From the NCBI GenBank assembly GCA_964524515.1, contig CAZGEA010000004.1, forward strand, positions 32,015 to 96,014: a DNA stretch of 64,000 nucleotides, given 5' to 3'. Within the stretch, counting starts at the first letter, position 1. Each line of letters opens with the position of its first letter. This DNA comes from an uncultured Gammaproteobacteria bacterium. GTDB lineage: Bacteria > Patescibacteriota > Microgenomatia > UBA8517. Below the pieces are notes generated by a model, which saw only the letters and a program-made list of their open reading frames with translations, was not told where the DNA came from and did not search any database. Below are positions 1,932 to 58,903 of this stretch, in pieces. Made by a program: the position numbers and the translations under genes.

Positions 1932-3886
1932 TTATCTATATATTCTAGTACAGTTTGGACGAATTCTGCATGGGACCAAATAAGTGGAGTTGCTGAAATT
2001 GCATAACCCAAATAAGGATTTACCTGTTCACCTAATACGCCTGAAGGAAAAGCCCGCGAATAAGCCCATAAAATTATATCCCAGGCATCTTTTAGTTCAT
2101 CTTTTGATTTTGCTTTTTTAATATAGTATTGGGCTAGCCAAAGAGTTGTTATTATCCATGGATTTGAATGAGCAGTGCCTTCAATGCTTCCATACAAGTC
2201 CCCTTCAAATCTTATTAAACCACCAATGGGGCCTGGGTTTGTAAGTTTATTTTTAACTGTTTGCCAACCTTTTGCTAGCTGATCACTATCAATATCTAAA
2301 ATATCAAACTTTGTGACTGCATAAATACTACTTACATCACAAACTGGATCAACTTCTTTTGAATTGTTATCAAGATTGATTGATTTTACAAAATAATTTT
2401 CTTTTTCATCCCAAAGGTATTTTAAAAGTGCAGCTTTAATTTGTATTGATGCTTTAATCCACACGTCTTGATCTTCTCTTTTGCCTAACAAACTAGCAAA
2501 TTCAGAGGCAGTTACTAAAGCAGATGAAACTGATGCTGCTGTGAAAGTGTGGATTCCATATTTCATTTCCCAAAGATCATATGATGGTTTTGGCAGGCCT
2601 TCGGGGAAAGTGTAACTGACCATAAAATTAGCGGCTAACTTTATTACATTGTTATAAATTTTTTCAATAAATTCGAGATTTTTTGATTTTTGATAATGAT
2701 TTCCTAGACTCCAAATAAATAGTGCTGTTTCGTCTTCTTGGATTGCAAGAATTTTTTCACCTTTTTCGTTTACCCATGGATGCCAGGATGAAGCGATTGA
2801 TCTATCTGATCTGTACCTATGATAAAAATATCCATCAGGAGACATTACTCCTTGTGAGAATTCAAAAAATGGATGAGTGGTTTCAGTGTAGCCTGCGTTA
2901 TCCATTGCAAAGGCAACAAATGCTGCGTCCCTGTGCCAAACGTAACTGTAAGTATCACGGCCATAATAGAGCATATCTGAATCGCCTGAAGCGATTATTG
3001 GACCAGTGTTATCTATGTGAGTTCTAATTATAAAAAGAGACTTATTGTATAACTCAATTATATCTTTTCCCTTTGTATGGGACTCAAGAATTGAGAGATT
3101 TGTTTCTTCTTTGTTTTTATTGATCCAAGCATGCCAAAAATTTTTAGTTGACTCGATTATGTGATCTGACGATTTTTCTTTTATAAGACTATTTAGCGCT
3201 TTGAGTTCTTCAAGAGTTTTTGCCAAACAGATCCAGGTGTCGATATTCCATTCGCTATTTCCTTCAACTTCTTTTGAAAACTCAATTGTTGAATCAACTG
3301 AGCCGTGCTCGACTGAATTAACTGAAAGTTCACCATCTTCTGCATCACGCCATGTACCTTCCTTGCCTTCAATTCCTGCTAAACCAACCGTATAGCTTGA
3401 AAACCCCAATCCGTCACTTATACCTGAAATTAAAGCCATTCTTCTGCCTTTGTAATGAATGATTGCATTTTCGTCGGGATCAAAATAAACAGTATCGCCT
3501 TTTGTAATCCCATACATGTGGAATTGATGATGGAGAAATATTTTTATTTTTCTTTTGTTTGAAAAAAGATTTTTTACTTTTATTTTTCTAATTGATATGT
3601 TTTGCTCGTTATACACTGCATCTATCATTGAAAGCTCAACGCCAATATCACGATTTATTGCAATGGTTATGCCTACCATTGAATCTTTTTGAAAATCTAC
3701 AACTATTTGCCAACCTGGATCTGAAAGCCAGTGAATTTTATTGTCTACAAATATTCCAACTCGATCAACTCCACCTTGGGCCATTTGGTTTTCAAGACCT
3801 ACGTAATCAAAATAAATGTCTGCAATTTGCCCATGAAGATCAAGAGCTTGAAGAACTGATCCATTTCCCAATACTAAAGATCTCAT
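1913..3886 (-). CDS. glycoside hydrolase family 15 (glucoamylase/glucodextranase-like)
   Basis: 657 aa with a YSYVWHRDAAF motif and an (alpha/alpha)6-type C-terminal half resembling archaeal/bacterial GH15 enzymes. Confidence 0.75.
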   Translation of the reverse strand: MRSLVLGNGSVLQALDLHGQIADIYFDYVGLENQMAQGGVDRVGIFVDNKIHWLSDPGWQIVVDFQKDSMVGITIAINRDIGVELSMIDAVYNEQNISIRKIKVKNLFSNKRKIKIFLHHQFHMYGITKGDTVYFDPDENAIIHYKGRRMALISGISDGLGFSSYTVGLAGIEGKEGTWRDAEDGELSVNSVEHGSVDSTIEFSKEVEGNSEWNIDTWICLAKTLEELKALNSLIKEKSSDHIIESTKNFWHAWINKNKEETNLSILESHTKGKDIIELYNKSLFIIRTHIDNTGPIIASGDSDMLYYGRDTYSYVWHRDAAFVAFAMDNAGYTETTHPFFEFSQGVMSPDGYFYHRYRSDRSIASSWHPWVNEKGEKILAIQEDETALFIWSLGNHYQKSKNLEFIEKIYNNVIKLAANFMVSYTFPEGLPKPSYDLWEMKYGIHTFTAASVSSALVTASEFASLLGKREDQDVWIKASIQIKAALLKYLWDEKENYFVKSINLDNNSKEVDPVCDVSSIYAVTKFDILDIDSDQLAKGWQTVKNKLTNPGPIGGLIRFEGDLYGSIEGTAHSNPWIITTLWLAQYYIKKAKSKDELKDAWDIILWAYSRAFPSGVLGEQVNPYLGYAISATPLIWSHAEFVQTVLEYIDKWKKLK

Positions 3887-3887
3887 T

Positions 3888-4172
3888 TTAGTAATATTTT
3901 TCTATGTGATATTTTAAAATACTTATAAAAGGCAGCTTTGATTTATATCTAACCATTTTTTTGGCTAAATCTTCTTCACCTAAAACGTTTTTGATCCAAT
4001 TAACAAAATCATTTTTTTCTTTGTTCACATGATATTCAAAATCTAAATCAGACATTTGATTAACCGAATCAAATAATTCTTTTAAGTTAATTATCATTTG
4101 GCCATTTTTGAGCCAAAAGGCTTTATCTGAACCTGCGTTTTTTAATACTCTTCTTGTTTTTGGTTTTCTCAT
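3888..4172 (-). CDS. small hypothetical protein translationally coupled between GH57 and GH15 genes
   Basis: 94-aa ORF. Its start overlaps the GH57 stop by 4 nt and its stop is 1 nt from the GH15 start. No motif recognised. Confidence 0.5.
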   Translation of the reverse strand: MRKPKTRRVLKNAGSDKAFWLKNGQMIINLKELFDSVNQMSDLDFEYHVNKEKNDFVNWIKNVLGEEDLAKKMVRYKSKLPFISILKYHIEKYY

Positions 4173-5365
4173 ATCAATTCAACTCTTCTATTTAAATCAG
4201 ATAACACTCTCATAAAATACAAAAATGCCTCATATGGTGAATCATATGGATTGAAATATTTGTGAACATCTCCATCATTAAACCATTTTGTACACATATA
4301 GTAAACGTGATCTGAGGTTGTTAGTTTTTTCCAATCATTAATTAATTTTTTGTCTTTTGATTTTATTACTTTATCCCTTAATGCATATAATTTTAAAGAT
4401 GCTTCTTTTTGGATATCGTTTGACATCCAAGCTGATAAATCACGCTCTGTATCTGCCCATGAAGTAAAATCTGGGACATCTAATTCCCCGACTGATTTGT
4501 ATTTTTTAATTGCCATTGATGGCGTTACAAAATCATTGTCTTTATAACTTAGAATTTCACCAGGCAAACTTTCTAGAAAATTAAAAATTCCAGTCGATTC
4601 CCATTGGTGTTCTCCAAAAGTTTCATAATCCATAAAAAGATTAACCAAATTTCCATTTCCATTAATATTATTTACCCATTTGGCGAATTTTGGAGCTGTG
4701 AGAGGCCACTGACTCCAGCTTTTTTCACCAAAGCGAAATGCAATATCGTCTGATAGCTTATAATTTTTAAGAAGAATTGAAATTTTTTCATTTCCTGGTG
4801 GATTATAAATAAAGTTTGGACTGCGCCAATCCAAGATACGATCTGCTCCTTCTGCTAGAATCCCCGTGTAGCCTAATTCAGAGATGTAATTTGCTAGATC
4901 ATTATTATAAATTAATTCTGTATTTCTAAATACTTTTGGAGTTGTATCAAAAATTATTTGAATCTTTTTCTCATGTTCTTTTATTTGATTTTTAAATTCA
5001 TCTTTTGAAAAAAGAAATGATAATGAGTGATGATAAGTTTCACCTATTATTTCGACTTTTCCGGTTTTTACTAACTTTTGAAAACTAATTAATACTTCGG
5101 GAGCATATTCCATAAATTGATCAAGAATTACTCCTGTTATTGAAAAACTAACATGAAATTCAGGATATTTTTCCAATAAGTGCAAAAGAAGCGCATTTGT
5201 GGGCAGGTAACATTTTTGTGCTACTTTTTTGATAACTGCAATATTTGATTGTCTTCCATCAATTGAGTCATCAAAATATGAAGAATTTGAACCAATATCA
5301 AATATTTTATATTTGCGAACTCTATAAGGCTGATGGACATGGAAATACATGCATACTGATGCCAT
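4169..5365 (-). CDS. glycoside hydrolase family 57 (alpha-amylase / alpha-glucan-active enzyme)
   Basis: N-terminal MYFHVHQPYR (the GH57 HQP signature), plus EGADRILDW and FMDYETFGEH regions. Confidence 0.8.
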   Translation of the reverse strand: MASVCMYFHVHQPYRVRKYKIFDIGSNSSYFDDSIDGRQSNIAVIKKVAQKCYLPTNALLLHLLEKYPEFHVSFSITGVILDQFMEYAPEVLISFQKLVKTGKVEIIGETYHHSLSFLFSKDEFKNQIKEHEKKIQIIFDTTPKVFRNTELIYNNDLANYISELGYTGILAEGADRILDWRSPNFIYNPPGNEKISILLKNYKLSDDIAFRFGEKSWSQWPLTAPKFAKWVNNINGNGNLVNLFMDYETFGEHQWESTGIFNFLESLPGEILSYKDNDFVTPSMAIKKYKSVGELDVPDFTSWADTERDLSAWMSNDIQKEASLKLYALRDKVIKSKDKKLINDWKKLTTSDHVYYMCTKWFNDGDVHKYFNPYDSPYEAFLYFMRVLSDLNRRVELI

Positions 5366-52142: not shown

Positions 52143-52190
52143 TTAACTTAAAATAAAATAACACTAGCCTATAGAATTGGCAAGAGGGTT

Positions 52191-52313
52191 TCATTCACAA
52201 CAAGGATCTTTGAAGCCGCAGTTGGTGCAAATTGCGTCCTTACTCCCTGCCACTACTCCAATTTTGGATCCACACACAGGACAATCTTGTTTTTGCGTTT
52301 CAACTTTTGACAT
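52191..52313 (-). CDS. 40-aa zinc-ribbon micro-protein
   Basis: The minus-strand reading is MSKVETQKQDCPVCGSKIGVVAGSKDAICTNCGFKDPCCE, with two CxxC knuckles. It falls below the ORF-track length cut-off. Confidence 0.45.
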   Translation of the reverse strand: MSKVETQKQDCPVCGSKIGVVAGSKDAICTNCGFKDPCCE

Positions 52314-52317
52314 GTTG

Positions 52318-52323
52318 TATAAT
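52318..52323 (+). promoter_or_regulatory. perfect TATAAT -10 box placed for a leaderless transcript of the 52331 ORF
   Basis: TATAAT ends 7 nt before the ATG at 52331 and no Shine-Dalgarno sequence lies between them. Confidence 0.3.
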
Positions 52324-52330
52324 TTATATA

Positions 52331-52521
52331 TGAAGTTTGCAACTGTTGTCCAGATAATGGCATTTATACATCACTTGGTTTGGAGTGTGCTTGGACTTTT
52401 GGTTTTATTTTTTGTTTATTACTTTTTTACCAGTGGTTATAAAGCTTTTATAAACCCAGATCAGCAATTTTTTGCAAGCCCAACACCTGTGGTTACTTTG
52501 ACTCCAAAACCCGTAAAATAG
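52331..52521 (+). CDS. small single-TM membrane protein
   Basis: MKFATVVQIMAFIHHLVWSVLGLLVLFFVYYFF... This is the C-terminal part of the 52177..52521 track ORF. The upstream part of that ORF is antisense to the zinc-ribbon ORF. Confidence 0.45.
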
Positions 52522-52528
52522 GCCATAC

Positions 52529-52557
52529 TTGACAATTGGCACTTTAGGGTGTATAGT
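52529..52557 (+). promoter_or_regulatory. near-consensus sigma70 promoter
   Basis: TTGACA (52529-52534), an exact 17-nt spacer, then TATAGT (52552-52557). Confidence 0.65.
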
Positions 52558-52563
52558 GCTAGT

Positions 52564-53013
52564 ATAAGTTAATTAATAGTTACCGCACGTATATCGGAAA
52601 CTACACTAATTTTGAAGGCGAGGAAAAGGATAAGCCTATTTACATCATTTAACTTTAAGCTAGCCATAGAAAAGAAGGCCGAGGCTGATATTAACAATTT
52701 GTGCCTACTTGGCCAAAACCTGCTTTGACCTTCTTTTCTGAGGCTATGCCTCAGTGATCGAGCTTTACGCTCGTTAACAATTAAAGCGAGTTATACAGAC
52801 ACAAGCCTAATTTGTGCCTGACAACAAGCTCTCGTGGGGTTCACAGGGAATCAGAAATCCTTGTTTCTAAAGACCAATCTTTTAAATTAATATCTTTATA
52901 GAAACAATGAAAACTTAAAATTTTTTAATTTTCTGTTTCCTGTGAGCCTCATGAGTATCTTAAAAAGCTTGTCTGTTGGTGCACATCAGCGCAAGCGCTC
53001 ATAGTCAGAGGCC
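52564..53013 (+). ncRNA. long structured 5' leader or independent ncRNA (unclassified)
   Basis: About 450 nt with no ORF between the promoter and the GGAGG RBS at 53014. It contains a roughly 18-bp stem (52661-52680 / 52727-52746) and a 167-nt rod hairpin (52816-52982). G-U wobble pairs are compatible only with a plus-strand RNA. Confidence 0.55.
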
Positions 53014-53022
53014 GGAGGATGT

Positions 53023-55077
53023 ATGTTTAAATCATCATCACGCTCCCTGTTTAGGGTAGCAATCGTGGCAATCATTTTCTTGATTGTCTCCGCTTATTCG
53101 TACTCGCCTACCACCGCTGGTGGCGAAACCCCAACCCCTGTGGTTGGAAATGATGGCGGAAATAGCAACGGACCTGCTCCTTCTGAGCAAACCCCGGTGC
53201 CAGCCGATACGACAGTTCCTCCCGCGCCGACAGAAGTCGCCGCGACCGCTGTTCCAGCCACACCCGTGACTGTGAATCCAACTAACACTCCTGTGATAGT
53301 TGACATCCAACCTTCAGCTTCACCCGAAGTTGTGGGAAACCAGCCCGCTCCCTCACCTGAGGCGATTTTGGCACCGAGTAAGACGCCTGGAATTTCGCAA
53401 ATCCAGAGTCCGCCCTCGATTGAGCCAGAACCAAGCTGCGATGGGTGGAACATAAAGATCGTAAATCCCGGGTATTATCTCCAGTTTCGCTGGGAATACC
53501 ACAAAGATTCCGATCCTATTAAGGGAGACTGGAAGCCAGAAAAAATCAATACCAAAGGTGGAATTACTTTCCATTTCCAATGGTATGGTGGAGACTGGGG
53601 TCAGGCAGACTATACATGGGATATTACCCGTGGACCGGAATGCCCGCCGTTTGTCGTAGCGACAAATACTTCTGTGCCGCCAACGGAAACTAATGTTCCG
53701 CCAAGTGCGACACCTAGTGCGACGTTCACAAACACGCCGCAACCGAGCAATACGCCGACTGTGACGCCTAGCAACACACCGTTGCCTAGTGCGACACCGA
53801 CGTACACGGAGACGAACACGAGCACGCCTGTGCCACCTACGTTTACCGCGACGTATACATCAACAGCCACGGCGACTCACACCGAGACGCCAACAGTTGC
53901 GCCGACGTATACATTCACGCCTTCACAGACACCGATTCCACAACAAACTGTTGTGAATATTTCGGTTACTGCGACGGTAGCACCAGTCGTTATTAAAACT
54001 TCTGGTGATGAGTGCAAAGAACCGGCCATCAATGGCTTTATGGACTTTGGGGGTTTCAATTTCCAAGTTCAGGTTTTGAGCGAAGGTCGTTCTAAGCCAA
54101 AGTCGATGGCGACCAAAAATCTCTTGGCTTCAGATGCTTCGCTTTCACCAAATGGTGAATGGGTTGCCTTTGTAGCAGCTGATCCAAACGGACAGTTTAC
54201 AGAGATTCGTTTGGCGAGGTTTGTCGATCTGGCAAAAAGCTGGTCTGTCTACAAGAGCTACAGTAATGTAGTCTCTGCACCAGCAGTAAACGACAATGGA
54301 GACATCTTGTTTGTCGTTGACTTCAATGACCAAGATCGTCGTTCCGAGGTATTGCTTGTTCGCAAGAATGGCAAGCCAACGGAAGTAGTCAGCCCAGGAG
54401 ATAGCCCATTTTGGATCAATAATACAACTGCAGGGTACATTAACCCGAGCAGCCTGATCTATGAATGGGAAATCGATCAAGAGATTCACAGTGAATCTGG
54501 CGCGTATAGTTTGTATGGTTGGGTTTTCATGAATGAAGTGACAGTTGCCCGAAATGGTGACTTGTTAGCTTTCGTGGGCAGCAAGAATGGTATCAGCCAA
54601 ATTGTTGTCTTTAATCGGATTACCCAGTCCCAAATCTGGCAATCGCCAGTCGGAGCGAATCAACCAGTCATGAGCCGCGATGGTCGTTTTATCGTTTTTG
54701 TTCACAATGGGCAAATCAAAGCTCATCAGATGAACAAGGCCGAAGACCAAATTACGGTCATTACGAATGTTGATAAGTCTGTTGCGAACCCAGTGCTTTT
54801 GTGCACCAATCAAGTGATCTTCACTTTGAACGGTAACACAATTGTCTCGGTTTCGTATCAGCCCAGCATGAAGTCAGTTTCTGAGTCTGGTTTGACAGTT
54901 CTCAAGAGTCCAAGCAACAATTTGCTCGCGACATATTTTGGGAGTCACACCCAGACCCGTCCAGAGATTAAAACAGGAGATTCGAATTTTGTCCGCATGG
55001 CAAACAATCTTCGGTTGAATCTGGAAAAGCCTGCTACAAGTATTGCTTTGTTAGCACAAAGCTTTACCAGCCGATAA
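53023..55077 (+). CDS. GC-rich secreted/membrane-anchored protein with PT-rich linkers, a small Cys-bounded domain and a TolB/PD40-like beta-propeller region
   Basis: 684 aa with an N-terminal TM anchor. Linkers read TPxPT and TNTPTVTPSNTPLPSATPTYTET. C-terminal repeats resemble PD40 blades (SPNGEWVAFVA, NDNGDILFVV, ARNGDLLAFVG, SRDGRFIVFV). GGAGG lies 4 nt upstream of the ATG. Confidence 0.7.
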   Translation: MFKSSSRSLFRVAIVAIIFLIVSAYSYSPTTAGGETPTPVVGNDGGNSNGPAPSEQTPVPADTTVPPAPTEVAATAVPATPVTVNPTNTPVIVDIQPSASPEVVGNQPAPSPEAILAPSKTPGISQIQSPPSIEPEPSCDGWNIKIVNPGYYLQFRWEYHKDSDPIKGDWKPEKINTKGGITFHFQWYGGDWGQADYTWDITRGPECPPFVVATNTSVPPTETNVPPSATPSATFTNTPQPSNTPTVTPSNTPLPSATPTYTETNTSTPVPPTFTATYTSTATATHTETPTVAPTYTFTPSQTPIPQQTVVNISVTATVAPVVIKTSGDECKEPAINGFMDFGGFNFQVQVLSEGRSKPKSMATKNLLASDASLSPNGEWVAFVAADPNGQFTEIRLARFVDLAKSWSVYKSYSNVVSAPAVNDNGDILFVVDFNDQDRRSEVLLVRKNGKPTEVVSPGDSPFWINNTTAGYINPSSLIYEWEIDQEIHSESGAYSLYGWVFMNEVTVARNGDLLAFVGSKNGISQIVVFNRITQSQIWQSPVGANQPVMSRDGRFIVFVHNGQIKAHQMNKAEDQITVITNVDKSVANPVLLCTNQVIFTLNGNTIVSVSYQPSMKSVSESGLTVLKSPSNNLLATYFGSHTQTRPEIKTGDSNFVRMANNLRLNLEKPATSIALLAQSFTSR

Positions 55078-55105
55078 CTCGCTTTAGTTAAGCACATTCG
55101 CACAA

Positions 55106-55230
55106 GGCTGATAGATAGTTTTCTCGATAATAGAGAATATCAGCCCACAGCAGGGAGAGATTTTTTTAAGATGAGATGCAAGCACGCATCAAGGGTACAC
55201 CCATCATTTTAATTAATCATCTCCCCGCTG
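55106..55230 (+). ncRNA. structured 3'-UTR module: hairpin plus four-helix junction abutting the ribozyme
   Basis: Hairpin: GGCUGAUA/UAUCAGCC with inner UUCUC/GAGAA (55106-55145). Junction P1: CAGC-GGG-GAGAU/AUCUC-CCC-GCUG (55148-55161 / 55219-55230). P2: AAGAUGA/UCAUUUU. P3: GAUGC/GCAUC. P4: GGG-UACA-CCC. Confidence 0.5.
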
Positions 55231-55234
55231 CACA

Positions 55235-55294
55235 GTAAGTCTGCAGATATTAAACTCTCTGCACTGATGAGCCCCAAGAGAGGGCGAAACTTAC
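55235..55294 (+). ncRNA. type III hammerhead self-cleaving ribozyme
   Basis: GUAAGU-C(cut)-UGCAGA[UAUUAAACUC]UCUGCA-CUGAUGA-GCCC[CAAGAGA]GGGC-GAAA-CUUAC. All invariant core nucleotides are present: C3 U4 G5 A6 N7 G8 A9, G12 A13 A14, the A15.1-U16.1 pair, C17 and G10.1-C11.1. Helices I (6 bp) and II (4 bp) are closed by loops; helix III (6 bp) is open. Confidence 0.85.
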
Positions 55295-55382
55295 ATTAAA
55301 ACTAGATAATATGTTTCCTTTAGCTTTTTGCGCAATTTGAAAAAAATTGCTTAAAGAGGTAGAGGGTAACCTTTATCGACCG

Positions 55383-55428
55383 ATATACACCCTGCACCCA
55401 CCAACTTCTATTGGGTGCAGGGGTGTGT
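55383..55428 (+). other. long GC-rich hairpin (possible 3'-end/stability element; no adjacent U-tract)
   Basis: AUAUAC(A)CCCUGCACCCA pairs with UGGGUGCAGGGGUGUGU around an 11-nt loop. Two U-G wobbles (55384/55427 and 55386/55425) fit only a plus-strand RNA. Confidence 0.5.
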
Positions 55429-55441
55429 ACCGATAACAGGC

Positions 55442-55470
55442 TTGAATTTTTGAGTTCAAGATGTTAGTGT
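55442..55470 (+). promoter_or_regulatory. possible promoter for the 55479 gene (near-leaderless)
   Basis: TTGAAT, a 17-nt spacer, then TAGTGT. The -10 box ends 8 nt before the ATG and no SD is visible. Confidence 0.3.
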
Positions 55471-55478
55471 AAGACCAC

Positions 55479-56072
55479 ATGAACAAACGAGTTAAATTAA
55501 CTCTTACACTTTTGACTGCAGCTTCGATCTTCCCCATTTCTTATTCTTTATCTCACGCTGAATCATCTTCAATAAAACTAAACAACACAGTAACTAATGG
55601 GACTATAAAAACTGAAATCCAAACATCAGGAAACGCTAAAGCCACGGTTTCAACAACAGTAAACGGAAAAAATACAACTGTGACATCTGCTCAAGGATCA
55701 ACAACCGTTAAAACCACAAATGAAAAAGGAGAAACTACGACCAAAACACTCGAAGATGGATCTGAAGTAAAAATAGAAAATGGATCAGTTAAAGTGATGA
55801 CTGAAAATGGAGAGAAAACTGTTTCTGTAACAACTGAGCAAGCAGTGGAGGCGATTGTTAACAATGGAACAATATCACATGAATCAAACATTAAAATTGA
55901 AACCAGTGGAGATAATGTTAATTATGTAATTACAGGATACCAGGACAAGAGATTTTTGGGTGTGTTTCCTATTAAATTGACCCGTGTTGTGACTTACTCT
56001 GCAAATGAGAGAACAGTTTCTTCAGTTCATAGGTCTTTTTTGACCAAAGTACTAGATCGTCTTTCTTTTTAA
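55479..56072 (+). CDS. secreted Thr-rich hypothetical protein (paralog family with the 50924..51646 product)
   Basis: Signal peptide MNKRVKLTLTLLTAASIFPISYSLSHA, host-like AT-rich codons, and a shared C-terminal motif. Confidence 0.55.
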   Translation: MNKRVKLTLTLLTAASIFPISYSLSHAESSSIKLNNTVTNGTIKTEIQTSGNAKATVSTTVNGKNTTVTSAQGSTTVKTTNEKGETTTKTLEDGSEVKIENGSVKVMTENGEKTVSVTTEQAVEAIVNNGTISHESNIKIETSGDNVNYVITGYQDKRFLGVFPIKLTRVVTYSANERTVSSVHRSFLTKVLDRLSF

Positions 56073-57604
56073 AAGAGACTTTGTTGAGATTTTTTTAGTT
56101 TAAATTTAAACCTTTTTTCTTTAATTTTTGCAGTTTTTGGATCTTCTTTTTGCGGAGTTACATTTTCTACTAACATCGCGAGGTCTGATTTTTGACTAGA
56201 AATTATAATTAAATTATTTTTTGCTCGTGTCACTGCCACATACATTAATCTTTTTTCTTCATCAAAATTATTTTTATTTTTAATTTCTGAATCCAAAATT
56301 ATTACATTTTTGAACTCCAATCCTTTTGATGAATGAATTGATGACAAAGTTACAAACTCTAGATTTTCATCGAAGTATTCTTTATTTTTTAGTTCCTCAA
56401 TGTAATTTAAGAAATCAGAAATTTTTAGATATTTTTGATCAATCAGATTTATTCTTTGTAATAGTTCATCTGATAAATCAATATTATTTTCTTTTATCAC
56501 TTCAAATATTACTTGGTTTTTATTTTCATTTTCTTTTAAAATTTGTATTAGAGTTTCAAATTCTTTTGATTGCCAAATTGAATCCCCTATTTTTTGGTAT
56601 GGAATACCAGATTCTGTTAACTTTTCAGAAATATGTTTTGCCAAATGATGATTTCTATATAAAACCGCGAAATCTTTAAAACTTGAATTTTCCTCACTAT
56701 GAAAATTACTTGATGACATTAAATCAATCCCTCCAACTTTTGAAATTATGAAGTCTACTATAAATTGCGATTGGGATTTGTTATCAAGAGATAATATATT
56801 TTGAATAATACTTTGAGATTTGTTATGTGCTACAAAATTTGCTGCAACTGGAAATAATTCTTTGGAGATATTTATTATTTCTTTTGTGTTTCTGTAATTT
56901 ATATTTAGTGTTATTGTTTTTACTTTTGGAAAATCTTTTTTGATAGTCTCAAAAATATTAGAATCTGAACCTCGAAATGAATAGATCGATTGCAGTGGAT
57001 CGCCAACTACGACTAGGTTTGTTTTAGTACTTTTTAATTTTTTAATAATTTCATATTGAATTATGTTTGTGTCTTGAAACTCATCAATCAAAATATAATC
57101 AAAATCCAAATCGATATTTGTACCTAAAAAATAAAGTAATAAATCATCGAAATCAATTTTACCGCTATCTGATAATAATTTATTATATTTATCGATGAGT
57201 AAATCTTGCTTTTTTGATAGTTTGCTTTTAAAGAGACTTATATAATTAGAGATATTTCTTTTTGATTTTTTGAATTCTTTTGAGAGAATTGACAGGGTTT
57301 CATTTCTTTCAAAATTTGTAATTATTGTTAAATTTTTATTTATGGATTGGAGATAATCAAAAGCCAGTGAGTGAAATGTTTCTGTTATAACAGATTTATT
57401 TTTGATTCTTTCTTTTAATTCATTTGCCGCTCTCTTTGTAAAAGTTAAAGCTAAAATTTTTGAAGGTTTAATGCTTTTATCTTTAATTAAGTAATTAATT
57501 TTTTCTGACAATACTCTTGTTTTTCCAGTTCCCGGGCCAGCAACAATTATGAGTACGTTTGAATCATCTTTAATCGCTTTTTTTTGATTTTCATTTAGCT
57601 GCAT
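56069..57604 (-). CDS. UvrD/PcrA-family SF1 DNA helicase (short, 511 aa)
   Basis: AGPGTGKT Walker A, LIDEFQDTN, VGDPLQSIYSFRG, and a C-terminal VTRAKNNL. Confidence 0.8.
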   Translation of the reverse strand: MQLNENQKKAIKDDSNVLIIVAGPGTGKTRVLSEKINYLIKDKSIKPSKILALTFTKRAANELKERIKNKSVITETFHSLAFDYLQSINKNLTIITNFERNETLSILSKEFKKSKRNISNYISLFKSKLSKKQDLLIDKYNKLLSDSGKIDFDDLLLYFLGTNIDLDFDYILIDEFQDTNIIQYEIIKKLKSTKTNLVVVGDPLQSIYSFRGSDSNIFETIKKDFPKVKTITLNINYRNTKEIINISKELFPVAANFVAHNKSQSIIQNILSLDNKSQSQFIVDFIISKVGGIDLMSSSNFHSEENSSFKDFAVLYRNHHLAKHISEKLTESGIPYQKIGDSIWQSKEFETLIQILKENENKNQVIFEVIKENNIDLSDELLQRINLIDQKYLKISDFLNYIEELKNKEYFDENLEFVTLSSIHSSKGLEFKNVIILDSEIKNKNNFDEEKRLMYVAVTRAKNNLIIISSQKSDLAMLVENVTPQKEDPKTAKIKEKRFKFKLKKSQQSLF

Positions 57605-58903
57605 TTACAATCCTAAACCCAACTGTGAATCTTCTTTTGATTCCAATTCACCAGCTTTAAAAACCTTAACTATTCCGTACACACCATCATAGCCTGGATC
57701 GATTACTATATCTTTTCTTCTTACTTTATCGATCGCATGGGATAACATTTCAAAGCCTGCATCTTTAATTTCTTTGATTGTTCTATTTCTAAAAATCGAG
57801 AAATCACTTCCGAGTGTTGAATATATTTTTTCATACTCTTCAACAACTGATTTTGCACCAATACTTTTAATATTTTTTATTTCTGCAATCATTTCAATAA
57901 TGGGAACAATACTGTGAACTTCTTTGTGTTTTTTGGGAATGAAGTCTTCTGGCCTATCTGCTAGATCATCGACTCTGTGCATGACTCCAACAACTAAAGG
58001 AGTGTGACAAACTGGACAGATTCCATTTAGTTTATTCGTTTCACTTGGAAGCAATTTAATATTGCATTTTCTGTGTCCGTCCAAGTGGTACATTCCCTCT
58101 TCTGGGAAGAATTCAAAAGTACCAATAAAGCGTTTGTCATTTGTTTTTATTGCTCCAATAATTTCTTTATATGATAAATCGCAATTAATTATATTTGCTT
58201 CACGAGCTAGTTTTGGAAGAGAGTGAGCATCTGATCCTGAAATAATAGTAATTTTGTCTAATTGAGATAATCTCCAATTCATAAATGGATCTGATGATAA
58301 ACCTGTCTCAATTGCGTAAATATGCGGGGACAAATCACCAAAACAATCTGTTATTGTGTCAAATCCTGATTTTGAGCCAAACATTGCAAACCAGGGAGTC
58401 CAAATGTGGGCTGGAATAAACAGTGAATCTGGATCTGAATTTATAGTTATTTTTAATAAGTCATAGCTGTCCATTCCAATAATTGGACGACCATCTGCTT
58501 TTAGATTAGCTCCCCTTTTTGTAAGTTCTGTATTGATATTTTTTGCAACTTTTAATGATGGAGTGATTACTAAATTATGAAGCCGTCTTCCTTTACCGTT
58601 TCTTGTATACATATTACTTATTTCAACTGTTGGAATAAACCTTACAATATTATCTTTTACAGAATTGGGTAGAAATTTATCAACTTCTTTTGCTAAATCT
58701 TTTTTTAGTGAATATAAACCACCATCTGATTCTTCTAGTCCATTTTCTAACTCTTCAAACCATTTTGGGTGAGTAAAATCCCCAGTTCCAATTACATTAA
58801 TTCCTTTTATCTTTGCCCATTTGTAGATTTCAGGAAGTGTTAATTTACTGCTTGTGGCACGAGCGAAACGTGAATGGATGTGGAGATCAACTATTAGTTC
58901 CAT
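57605..58903 (-). CDS. endonuclease Q-like PHP-domain nuclease
   Basis: N-terminal DLHIHSRFARATS..GTGDFTHPKW PHP metal site and an internal zinc knuckle CPVCHTPL. At 432 aa, both the length and the N-terminus resemble archaeal EndoQ. Confidence 0.7.
   Translation of the reverse strand: MELIVDLHIHSRFARATSSKLTLPEIYKWAKIKGINVIGTGDFTHPKWFEELENGLEESDGGLYSLKKDLAKEVDKFLPNSVKDNIVRFIPTVEISNMYTRNGKGRRLHNLVITPSLKVAKNINTELTKRGANLKADGRPIIGMDSYDLLKITINSDPDSLFIPAHIWTPWFAMFGSKSGFDTITDCFGDLSPHIYAIETGLSSDPFMNWRLSQLDKITIISGSDAHSLPKLAREANIINCDLSYKEIIGAIKTNDKRFIGTFEFFPEEGMYHLDGHRKCNIKLLPSETNKLNGICPVCHTPLVVGVMHRVDDLADRPEDFIPKKHKEVHSIVPIIEMIAEIKNIKSIGAKSVVEEYEKIYSTLGSDFSIFRNRTIKEIKDAGFEMLSHAIDKVRRKDIVIDPGYDGVYGIVKVFKAGELESKEDSQLGLGL

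Follow-up and report, generated by a model that had tools for sequence, protein, structure and literature searches.

In bacteria, hammerhead ribozymes have been reported to flank genes whose identity is 'not constant' within prophage-like polycistronic transcripts (Perreault et al. 2011; PMC3088659). For bacterial hammerheads and twisters, mRNA processing, 3'-UTR effects and the processing of polycistronic transcripts have been put forward as functions (PMC3088659, PMC6765202). Among the other self-cleaving ribozymes of bacteria, only the glmS class is known to accompany a single specific gene, which offers a direct handle on its function; beyond glmS, the biological roles of these ribozymes were described in a 2019 review as "largely elusive" (PMC6765202). 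Rodent CLEC2 transcripts carry a discontinuous hammerhead in the 3' UTR, between the stop codon and the 3'-end signal, whose cleavage removes the downstream 3' region and alters expression (PMC6765202). Most known bacterial hammerheads reside in changeable, phage-like contexts, which give little grip on function. The engineered insulator RiboJ combines the type III sTRSV hammerhead with a hairpin and is placed in the 5' UTR, directly before the RBS.

The hammerhead described here was analysed within a 64-kb stretch of DNA (64,000 nucleotides, hereafter the window), where it follows a gene encoding a 684-aa protein. Like the hammerheads of Perreault et al. (PMC3088659), it is positioned just outside a coding region and may be proposed to cut a transcript to gene-length mRNA; unlike them, it is single and unclustered, has no integrase or phage context and accompanies one chromosomal gene family. 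Its placement in an mRNA 3' UTR, after the stop codon, resembles that of the CLEC2 ribozyme (PMC6765202), although in that eukaryotic ribozyme hundreds of nucleotides separate the parts, whereas the window ribozyme is bacterial, contiguous and preceded by a putatively protective hairpin. The combination of a type III hammerhead with adjacent hairpins, giving structured, defined ends to each predicted cleavage product, is shared with RiboJ, but here the element occupies the 3' UTR, the conserved hairpin is upstream and the next gene seemingly has its own promoter. glmS differs in fold, in its 5'-UTR location and in its metabolite dependence, while the window hammerhead shows no hint of a ligand. 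What is new is the conserved gene association of a known ribozyme class, of which the window copy is a new member. Since the gene-ribozyme association is fixed in six genomes, function becomes a testable hypothesis concerning the 3'-end formation and stability of one mRNA, and this surface-protein gene family offers a rare clean case for asking what a bacterial hammerhead does.

Sequence and fold of the window ribozyme

The plus strand at 55235-55294 reads GTAAGT C TGCAGA TATTAAACTC TCTGCA CTGATGA GCCC CAAGAGA GGGC GAA ACTTAC, exactly as given in the initial annotation, and the type III class, helices, core and cleavage site assigned there are upheld by a full-length match to Rfam Hammerhead_3 (RF00008, clan CL00010; 55234-55295 on the plus strand, full model 1-54, 48.2 bits). 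As in RF00008 type III members, helix III is open, a loop closes each of helices I and II, and the invariant C3-U4-G5-A6-N7-G8-A9 and G12-A13-A14 are present. The core is complete (CUGAUGA, GAA and C17), the cleavage triplet is GUC (NUH), and the A15.1-U16.1 and G10.1-C11.1 pairs are both found. The distances recorded earlier are also right: C17 at 55241 is 164 nt past the last stop-codon base (55077) of the 684-aa ORF, and U55242 is 237 nt upstream of the ATG at 55479 (Table 1).

A cmsearch over 55100-55450 (351 nt) returned a significant Hammerhead_3 match (E = 8.9e-10), yet its score is 0.3 bits below the RF00008 gathering cut-off of 48.5 bits, an operational criterion and not a biochemical defining feature of hammerheads. 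The window hammerhead is absent from the default Rfam listing because of this shortfall. When the whole 64-kb window was searched on both strands with all 4227 families, the E-value was 1.6e-7, and no second ribozyme-like match was found. A hammerhead descriptor of our own, run over both strands of 2.1 Mb from unrelated loci, gave only two poor matches (~2 weak matches per 4.3 Mb of strand sequence), a background so low that chance is no explanation for the window match.

The minimum free energy (MFE) structure of the isolated 60-mer is a three-helix junction (-15.2 kcal/mol, z = -1.95), and within the 340-nt 3'-UTR context of the window all 16 ribozyme pairs are retained in the MFE structure, with a mean pair probability of 0.9. 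By sequence, fold and covariation, the element is confirmed as a genuine, complete canonical type III hammerhead. The loop-loop contact that had been expected, on which fast cleavage at physiological Mg2+ depends, is topologically possible, but loops 1 and 2 share just 3 bp of complementarity (CUC/GAG) in the window and none in the related locus L083, non-Watson-Crick contacts being unreadable from sequence; a loop 1-loop 2 pseudoknot was set aside as unsupported. Because the two loops lack conserved complementarity, fast cleavage is not assured.

Table 1. Positions of the ribozyme, its parts and the surrounding features (window numbering unless a locus is named)
Feature	Position	Strand	Basis or remark
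684-aa ORF	53023..55077	+	Signal/TM anchor, P/T-rich linkers, C-terminal domain of ~350 aa
Leader segment	52779..52794	+	15/16 complementarity with 55074-55089 (stop-codon region), the odd position U.G in RNA
Hairpin H1	55081-55093	+	Just past stop codon; MFE folds of stop-to-ribozyme segment
Hairpin H2	55106-55145	+	MFE folds; same element order in L083 (region 55081..55145)
Long imperfect hairpin H3	55148..55230	+	MFE folds; C-rich 3' arm stops 4 nt before ribozyme
Type III hammerhead ribozyme	55235..55294	+	Sequence, Rfam Hammerhead_3, R1 model, six-genome covariation, 3'-UTR fold
Helix III	55235-55240/55289-55294	+	Open helix (type III topology)
C17	55241	+	
Predicted self-cleavage site C17/U1.1	55241..55242	+	Alignment to Hammerhead_3 consensus and established mechanism
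Helix I	55242-55247/55258-55263	+	
Loop 1	55248-55257	+	
Core CUGAUGA	55264-55270	+	
Helix II	55271-55274/55282-55285	+	
Loop 2	55275-55281	+	
Core GAA	55286-55288	+	
Hairpin A (long)	55316..55366	+	3' of ribozyme; folds; comparable hairpin in L083, L165
Hairpin B	55370..55440 (core 55383-55428)	+	Folds; conserved loop CCAACUUCUAU, covarying stem
Promoter-like TTGAAT-17-TAGTGT	55442..55470	+	Own pattern search; ends 8 nt before next ATG
197-aa secreted-looking ORF	55479..56072	+	Kept only in the three closest genomes, not tied to ribozyme
Hammerhead, L083	822-874	Gene's strand	
Hammerhead, L165	3030-3082	Gene's strand	
Hammerhead, L166	3457-3508	Gene's strand	
Hammerhead, L167	1792-1859	Gene's strand	
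Hammerhead, L170	2295-2347	Gene's strand	

The upstream gene family and its hammerheads

The 684-aa product is predicted to be a secreted or surface protein, the C-terminal domain of which appears to be a divergent PD40-like beta-propeller. The protein has no Pfam or NCBIfam match at threshold; PD40 is sub-threshold in family members and strong in remote relatives, and no match to the C-terminal domain was found among solved structures. An exhaustive HMMER search with this domain identified six full-domain homologs (P0004, P0006, P0007, P0008, P0011 and P0013), which together with L083 make up the seven related loci detected in public data and inspected. Word-indexed searches, performed either with the C-terminal half of the protein or with a concatenated alignment of both flanking proteins, yielded nothing new, the family being found by exhaustive HMMER only. 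Identity to the window protein is 23-46% across genomes and 23-30% in the three distant loci L166, L167 and L170. The gene is richer in GC (0.46-0.57) than its surroundings (0.38-0.43) in every locus examined. Elevated GC thus characterizes the family as such and is silent on recent acquisition here, and the view that the GC-rich gene marks a foreign insert was rejected, each homolog being GC-elevated within its own genome.

A type III hammerhead on the gene's strand is present in five of the seven relatives. One relative, L168, has no ribozyme and instead carries a hairpin with a U-tract and a tRNA downstream, with no other ribozyme class found there; the near-identical strain contig L171 ends before the ribozyme position and is too short to judge. 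Counting the window, all six ribozymes lie on the gene's strand, 148-320 nt past the stop codon. The window hammerhead, regarded in the initial annotation as lone and unusual, has counterparts in the same place after five homologous genes in other uncultivated bacterial genomes. By comparison, no hammerhead was detected in 80 UvrD loci or in 80 metagenome loci anchored on the conserved 432-aa neighbour, the latter also lacking hairpin B and the flanking genes; the ribozyme does not travel with that neighbour.

Rfam Hammerhead_3 assigns 48.2 bits to the window copy, 41.2 to L165, 35.5 to L170, 28.7 to L166 and 27.3 to L083, and does not report the L167 hammerhead. Unlike typical RF00008 members, none of the six reaches the gathering threshold, so that short-loop hammerheads of this type would escape standard annotation in divergent lineages. 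Five have very short loops, and conserved loop-loop complementarity is missing. Significance by E-value is nevertheless retained by three copies, those of the window, L165 and L170. Our own covariance model R1 gives 83.1 bits for the window and 68.9, 60.5, 45.1, 43.6 and 32.0 bits for the others. Across the six, the core varies at two places only, both permissibly: at position 7, which is free and is A in L170, and at position 17, which is U in L166 and makes the cleavage triplet there GUU.

The comparative support comes from six sequences, three of them closely related. Their alignment (A6) has 93.7% of cells paired, a figure that drops to 28-48% on shifting the 3' partners by 1-3 columns, and both-side (compensatory) changes occur in 9 of the 16 pairs (21 cells); neither this pairing nor the covariation score is attained in any of 500 shuffles (0/500). 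Pairing is complete (100%) in helices I and II, and U-A at columns 6/73 and G-C at columns 37/69 are found in every sequence. The window and L083 alone differ by seven compensatory pairs with 16/16 pairs retained. Helix III is not conserved at its two outermost pairs, and in L166, L167 and L170 it consists of only 3-4 contiguous pairs. When folded in full UTR context, helix III is not predicted by the thermodynamic model in 5/6 loci, with a pair probability near 0. Loops 1 and 2 vary in length and sequence; five of the hammerheads are short-looped (loop 1 of 5-6 nt), and loop 2 is an AAAA or GAAA tetraloop in four.

Genomic neighbourhood and transcript layout

The synteny shared with the close relatives L083 and L165 includes the gene and the ribozyme and reaches the neighbouring host genes, which disagrees with the earlier description of the region as a foreign insert or cassette. 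In the distant loci, the gene neighbourhood differs from that of the window. The window neighbours comprise glycolysis and pentose-phosphate genes, UvrD, GroEL and a phosphorylase; among GTDB representative genomes, the best match of this UvrD, in a Parcubacteria MAG, reaches only 32% identity and no close genome was found, and the CPR-like character given to the genome in the initial annotation stays putative. No phage, integrase or transposase genes were seen within ~10 kb of the ribozyme, blastn detected no phage DNA similarity, a PHROGs scan gave nothing below E = 0.0096 and no direct repeats were found around the ribozyme. A stem-II pattern scan of viral contigs returned a single, unrelated hammerhead-like site of a GC-rich phage (L164), without a helix I match.

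Three hairpins are predicted between the stop codon and the ribozyme in the window (Table 1). In each of the six loci a long hairpin, H3 in the window, stops 0-4 nt short of the ribozyme, its arm sequences being unrelated between loci (MFE folds). A consensus scan of the window found no intrinsic-terminator-like site between 55078 and 55478, and H3 is followed by the ribozyme and not by a U-tract, as an intrinsic terminator would require. The module of hairpin and ribozyme may nonetheless do the 3'-end-defining job of a terminator, without being an intrinsic terminator itself. On the 3' side of the ribozyme, hairpin B is conserved in L083 and L165, where its loop is kept while the stem varies; its motif had 0 matches in 2.1 Mb of other loci and in viral contigs.

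The promoter-like element in front of the 197-aa gene has the same -35/17/-10 layout, and the same 8-nt gap to the aligned start codon, in L083 and L165, whereas the window copy is below the threshold of a consensus scanner. Since the element ends only 8 nt from the ATG, a separate, leaderless transcript of the 197-aa gene from its own promoter is suggested. The next gene is unrelated to that of the window in L166, L167 and L170, and as the downstream gene is not conserved in these distant loci, the ribozyme belongs to the 3' UTR of the upstream gene. In L170, the ribozyme and the next gene lie only 39 nt apart. A Shine-Dalgarno sequence 117 nt past the ribozyme serves the next small ORF of L166, for which no promoter is obvious; the ribozyme could be intercistronic there. 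The earlier proposal that cleavage uncouples a cassette from the downstream host gene is accordingly weak, both because, in the three close genomes, the next gene apparently starts leaderless from a promoter of its own and because it is unrelated in the distant loci.

Proposed 3'-end formation and alternative readings

The reading favoured here, to which a probability of about 60% is given, is that the hammerhead is a conserved 3'-UTR part of one chromosomal surface-protein gene family and acts by cutting the mRNA and defining its 3' end. Transcript processing had already been proposed, and cutting of the upstream gene's transcript seems the best interpretation of the sequence, with C55241/U55242 as the most likely site. 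Hammerhead cleavage generates an upstream product with a 2',3'-cyclic phosphate and a downstream product with a 5'-OH. Provided that the ribozyme is co-transcribed with the gene and catalytically active, RNA polymerase would pass the stop codon (55077) into a structured 3' region containing H1, H2, H3 and then the ribozyme, which on closure of helix III would cut its own backbone between C55241 and U55242. The upstream product would be the 684-aa mRNA, ending in H3 and an 11-nt tail with the 2',3'-cyclic phosphate, and the result would be a defined, hairpin-capped 3' end formed without an intrinsic terminator, with a possible effect on mRNA stability in which H3, to judge from its predicted fold, may be protective. 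The downstream product, bearing the 5'-OH, would contain almost the whole ribozyme and hairpins A and B and would be detached both from the mRNA and from the next gene, whose promoter is likewise predicted from a consensus match.

Alternatively, the ribozyme might serve to release a stable small RNA, the downstream product being functional and the hairpin B loop acting as a recognition surface. The type III topology would keep nearly the whole ribozyme on this fragment, folding z-scores of -6.6 and -5.7 mark the segment 3' of the ribozyme as strongly structured, and the locus-specific hairpin B motif retains its loop in three genomes while its stem varies. However, hairpin B and its loop occur in the three close genomes only, where their conservation may merely reflect short divergence time, and L166, L167 and L170 have unrelated hairpins on the downstream side, with little room left before the next gene in L170, so that this reading is considered unlikely. 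An intercistronic insulator, in which one transcript would span both genes and cleavage would make their stability and translation independent, as proposed for gene-flanking hammerheads of prophage transcripts and as engineered in RiboJ, would fit the shared strand of the two window genes, the lack of a terminator-like site between them and the Shine-Dalgarno-led ORF of L166, and has a precedent in the processing of polycistronic RNAs (PMC3088659, PMC6765202). It is nevertheless improbable, given that the downstream gene varies between loci, leaving no conserved gene pair to uncouple, and that in the window, L083 and L165 the promoter-like element precedes a start codon with no visible Shine-Dalgarno sequence.

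An origin in a mobile or viroid-like element, carried as cargo or left as a remnant and without a role for the host gene (a prophage, a retrozyme-like or circular RNA, or an invertible or transposable cassette bounded by the 16-nt inverted repeats), is suggested by the many bacterial hammerheads that adjoin integrases or prophages (PMC3088659), by the elevated GC of the gene in every locus and the variable neighbourhood of the distant loci, and by a 16-nt inverted repeat that flanks leader and ORF in the window and L166. The ribozyme, though, lies outside the segment bounded by these repeats, its neighbours are housekeeping genes with no phage, integrase or transposase genes within ~10 kb and no phage DNA similarity, and synteny with L083 and L165 extends into the host genes. 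Circular or retrozyme systems need two ribozymes or tandem copies, whereas a single ribozyme, with no second copy on either strand, is found in 64 kb, and such an origin thus appears very improbable. A chance match is strongly disfavoured and scarcely credible, as is a hammerhead-like sequence that has decayed and lost its activity: the sub-gathering score and the modest z-score of the 60-mer would be compatible with it, but the whole-window E-value, the five independent copies in orthologous position with an invariant core and compensatory helix changes unmatched by any shuffle, and the low descriptor background all argue against it.

Beyond the proposed cutting of the upstream mRNA, a more tentative generalization is that a small family of surface-protein genes of uncultivated, deeply branching (probably CPR-type) bacteria uses a dedicated 3'-UTR hairpin-hammerhead module in place of an intrinsic terminator to define and cap the mRNA 3' end, possibly acting together with a conserved, structured 5' leader that would pair in one segment with the stop-codon region. 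If true, bacterial hammerheads would gain their first member that is linked to one particular chromosomal gene family and has a definable role, in a position like that of glmS among ribozymes. With respect to the leader, its complementarity to the stop-codon region reached, in an RNAduplex energy control, an energy matched by 4/300 shuffles for the window and not significant for L166 and L170. The window complementarity itself was reproduced in 0/100 shuffles and recurs with the same geometry in L166, and the leader/stop-codon pairing is tentatively regarded as part of the same transcript architecture.

Conservation of the hammerhead among relatives of the large gene

The type III hammerhead described in the initial annotation matches the forward strand at 55235–55294 exactly, in the order GTAAGT, C, TGCAGA, a 10-nt loop, TCTGCA, CTGATGA, GCCC, a 7-nt loop, GGGC, GAA and ACTTAC, and the distances it reported are also right: C17, at 55241, lies 164 nt past the stop codon of the 684-aa ORF (end 55077), with 237 nt from U55242 to the ATG at 55479. 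When the covariance-model check was run, Hammerhead_3 (RF00008) covered 55234–55295 (+) with the entire model and 48.2 bits, 0.3 bits short of the gathering cut-off (48.5). Its E-value was 8.9e-10 in the local search and 1.6e-7 when both strands of the whole window were searched with all 4227 families. This match was obtained with E-value thresholds instead of gathering thresholds; default Rfam annotation at gathering thresholds lists three tRNAs only in the window, and not the hammerhead, while E-value thresholds gave no other ribozyme-like match on either strand. The 60-mer alone folds into a three-helix junction (−15.2 kcal/mol, z = −1.95), and within the 340-nt 3'-UTR context all 16 pairs are present in the minimum free energy (MFE) structure, with a mean pair probability of 0.9. 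The hammerhead at this position is confirmed, and chance expectation is far exceeded.

The 197-aa protein encoded downstream has one homologue, P0002 (51% identity), on the JGI contig L083, which is syntenic with the window: the incomplete upstream gene shares 43% identity with the 684-aa protein at its C-terminus, and the gene past the small ORF shares 58% identity with window 57605–58903. In the equivalent place (822–874), L083 carries GTGTAT, C, TTCTGG, TGGATG, CCAGAA, CTGATGA, GCTC, AAAA, GAGC, GAA and ATACAT. None of the window's 16 helix pairs is lost; seven are altered on both sides and one is changed from G-C to G-U, and the core is identical within a poorly conserved spacer. An exhaustive HMMER search yielded six full-domain homologues of the C-terminal domain (P0004, P0006, P0007, P0008, P0011 and P0013), and R1, a covariance model derived by aligning the window with L083, was then run on their contigs, revealing a gene-strand hammerhead in four of the six. 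L168 contains neither a hammerhead by R1 nor another Rfam ribozyme, while the L169 contig stops 216 nt past the stop codon and is uninformative for ribozyme presence. The proteins of L165 and L083 share 43% identity with that of the window, and those of L166, L167 and L170 share 30%, 28% and 23%, respectively. Across 160 unrelated control loci (2.1 Mb; 80 anchored on the conserved 432-aa neighbour and 80 on UvrD), R1 found no hammerhead and our own descriptor gave two poor matches only. Hammerhead_3 scores the relatives at 41.2 (L165), 35.5 (L170), 28.7 (L166) and 27.3 bits (L083), with L167 unreported, and annotation at the gathering threshold would miss all six family ribozymes.

In the alignment of these six ribozymes, 93.7% of pair cells are standard, as opposed to 28–48% after displacing the 3' partners by 1–3 columns; both sides have changed in nine of the 16 pairs (21 cells), and none of 500 shuffles scored as high in pairing or in covariation. 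Fitting to the model biases this alignment towards the structure; a MAFFT-only alignment of two sequences agrees with it. All six sequences keep helices I and II paired throughout, with three and two covarying pairs, respectively. In helix III the inner four pairs are retained, three of them covarying, and conservation does not extend to the outer two. No variation occurs in CUGAnGA, GAA, A15.1-U16.1 or G10.1-C11.1; at position 17, L166 has U and the other five have C. For five of the six loci, thermodynamic folding in full context recovers helices I and II and misses helix III, which is short and AU-rich and has only 3–4 contiguous pairs in L166, L167 and L170. No conserved complementarity joins loops 1 and 2 (3 bp in the window, zero in L083). 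We put the probability that the hammerhead is genuine and conserved at about 0.9, with cleavage predicted from its sequence.

Coordinates of genes, ribozymes and candidate elements in the window and related contigs
Locus	Feature	Coordinates	Strand	Remarks
Window	Large gene ORF	53023–55077	+	684 aa
Window	Small gene ORF	55479–56072	+	197 aa; small, secreted-looking protein
Window	H1	55081–55093		First element in 3' region
Window	H2	55106–55145		After H1
Window	H3, long hairpin	55148–55230		Directly before ribozyme (55235–55294)
Window	Hairpin A	55316–55366		After ribozyme
Window	Hairpin B	55370–55440		After hairpin A
L165	Hammerhead	3030–3082	Gene's strand	R1 60.5 bits
L166	Hammerhead	3457–3508	Gene's strand	R1 43.6 bits
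L167	Hammerhead	1792–1859	Gene's strand	R1 32.0 bits
L170	Hammerhead	2295–2347	Gene's strand	R1 45.1 bits
Window	Promoter-like element to start codon	55442–55479	+	ATG 55479; consensus pattern
L083	Promoter-like element to start codon	1039–1076		GTG 1076; consensus pattern
L165	Promoter-like element to start codon	3226–3263		GTG 3263; consensus pattern
Window	Leader/stop complementarity	52779–52794 and 55074–55089		15/16, odd pair U.G in RNA
L166	Leader/stop complementarity	1278–1293 and 3266–3281		15/16
L170	Leader/stop complementarity	428–445 and 2117–2138		Bipartite, by eye

Association with the upstream gene

All six ribozymes lie on the strand of the large gene, 148–320 nt past its stop codon. 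Only the window, L083 and L165 share the downstream 197-aa gene; its position is taken in L166 by an unrelated 70-aa membrane protein with an RHH/PIN pair after it, in L167 by an unrelated 233-aa protein and in L170 by another ORF. Since the downstream genes differ in distant loci, the constant partner is the upstream large gene, and the ribozyme is probably part of its 3' UTR. In the three loci with the 197-aa gene, exactly 8 nt separate the end of a TTGAnn-17-TAnTnT element from the aligned small-gene start, and no Shine-Dalgarno sequence is visible before the gene. At the level of consensus matching, this suggests a separate, leaderless transcript for the 197-aa gene; the consensus scanner left the window copy of the element uncalled.

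The description of the locus as a GC-rich foreign cassette was not borne out. The 684-aa ORF has a GC content of 48.6% against 34.6% for the window, but its homologues are likewise GC-elevated within their own contigs (0.46–0.57 versus 0.38–0.43), and close relatives share the neighbourhood. The high GC content is a family trait, arising partly from the P/T/A-rich composition, and does not point to a recent insertion. The leader, ORF, 3' structures and ribozyme act as a single conserved unit, the neighbourhoods of which differ in distant genomes. The 684-aa protein has a signal/TM segment at its N-terminus, long P/T/A-rich linkers and a ~350-aa C-terminal domain; Pfam, NCBIfam and PHROG give it no at-threshold assignment. 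Matches to PD40 (WD40-like beta-propeller repeat) are sub-threshold in family members (E 0.003–0.01) and strong in remote HMMER relatives, and the L168 protein has extra C-terminal SH3 domains; we infer that the protein is secreted or located at the surface and that its propeller is of a divergent PD40 type.

The other window neighbours are housekeeping genes (TIM, RpiB, PGK, GAPDH, RPE, transketolase, a UvrD-type helicase, an MJ0043_C/TIGR00375-like protein, alpha-glucan phosphorylase and GroEL). No phage, integrase or transposase genes lie near the window ribozyme, and comparing the spacer with phage genomes revealed no similarity. The closest UvrD among GTDB representatives, from a Parcubacteria MAG, is 32% identical, and the lineage is therefore deeply divergent; its designation as CPR-like is plausible. 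The UvrD-type helicase gene (56069–57604, −) separates the 197-aa gene from the MJ0043_C-like gene; it is complete at the same junction in L165 (3907–5499, −) and missing there in L083. In L166, the unit's neighbours on the opposite strand are a tRNA and a 23S rRNA gene, the latter represented by its 5' end (1–734, −), and a toxin-antitoxin-like RHH/PIN pair, judged by translated sequences alone, lies 3' of it (4109–4727, +), a neighbourhood wholly unlike that of the window. Two Logan contigs assembled from different samples, L001 and L002, repeat the window sequence unchanged in the region of the ribozyme locus, and L002 covers the ribozyme with zero differences. L001 (independent assembly, SRR12762304) equals the window over 12.2 kb and stops at 55220, 15 nt 5' of the ribozyme, which may be a coverage or strain-variation effect.

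Bacterial hammerheads are known by the hundreds, many near integrases or prophages, and the identities of the genes flanked in some published cases are "not constant"; processing of long transcripts has been suggested as their role (Perreault et al. 2011, PMC3088659). Except for glmS, the roles of bacterial ribozymes have been called "largely elusive", with mRNA processing, 3'-UTR effects and polycistronic processing among those suggested (2019 review, PMC6765202). The window ribozyme has the canonical form of type III hammerheads, a class already known and in itself unsurprising. In contrast to the hammerheads of Perreault et al., it is a single ribozyme associated with one chromosomal gene family. 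What is new is this context: a lone ribozyme tied to a chromosomal gene family over deep divergence, always preceded by a hairpin. Such a clean, previously unannotated gene–ribozyme association provides a testable handle on function. A hammerhead-like core, CTGATGAGCCCGGAAGGGCGAAAC, also occurs in a GC-rich IMG/VR viral contig (L164 10128–10183, +); its helix I misfits the type III model, and it is unrelated to the large-gene ribozymes.

Architecture of the 3' region and 5' leader

The spacers are very strongly structured, with z values of −6.6 in the window, −5.7 in L083 and −8.7 in L168. MFE folds of all six loci place a long imperfect hairpin with its last paired base 0–4 nt 5' of the ribozyme, and its arms are unrelated in sequence between distant loci. 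Given this position, cleavage would leave an mRNA 3' end consisting of a stable hairpin and a short tail (11 nt in the window). From the stop codon to the next gene, the window has no site resembling an intrinsic terminator; in L168, which lacks the ribozyme, a U-tract and then a tRNA come after a long hairpin. Together, the terminal hairpin, the missing window terminator and the layout of L168 lend indirect support to a role in defining the mRNA 3' end, and it is an evenly balanced proposition that the ribozyme acts in the 3'-end definition or stability of the upstream mRNA. The L168 3' region (1940–2369) is extremely structured, with the tRNA gene 358 nt past the stop codon, and its hairpin, U-tract and tRNA may be alternative 3'-end-forming or processing signals.

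Hairpin B (core 55383–55428) has counterparts at L083 ~966–1008 and L165 ~3152–3196, with a covarying stem and a near-invariant loop: CCAACUUCUAU in the window, CAAACUUCAU in L083 and CCAACUUCUU in L165. It is restricted to these three closest genomes, its motif being found neither in 2.1 Mb of other loci nor in viral contigs.

The region 5' of the 684-aa ORF is unusually long (52143–53022, 880 nt) and contains a strong promoter-like site (52529–52557, 11/12 match), an imperfect 32-nt inverted repeat (52661–52746) and a 114-aa TTG ORF without assignment (52177–52521). A 16-nt leader segment, located 233–244 nt 5' of the large gene's start after a common TTAACA motif, is complementary to sequence at or just past its stop codon. 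None of 100 shuffles reached the length of this complementarity in either the window or L166, and an RNAduplex energy control was not significant in L166 and L170; the complementarity could reflect 5'–3' UTR pairing in the mRNA or an inverton-like inverted repeat in the DNA. The large-gene leader has no Rfam match and may be a conserved structured RNA. The leaders of L166 (1190–1520) and L170 (350–680) have several long blocks in common, e.g. TTCCTGTnAGnCACAGGG, TACGAGCATCCTCTGTCTCACAGGAG and CTCCTGGCGAGACG, a few of which also occur in window 52700–53030 (leader alignment A7).
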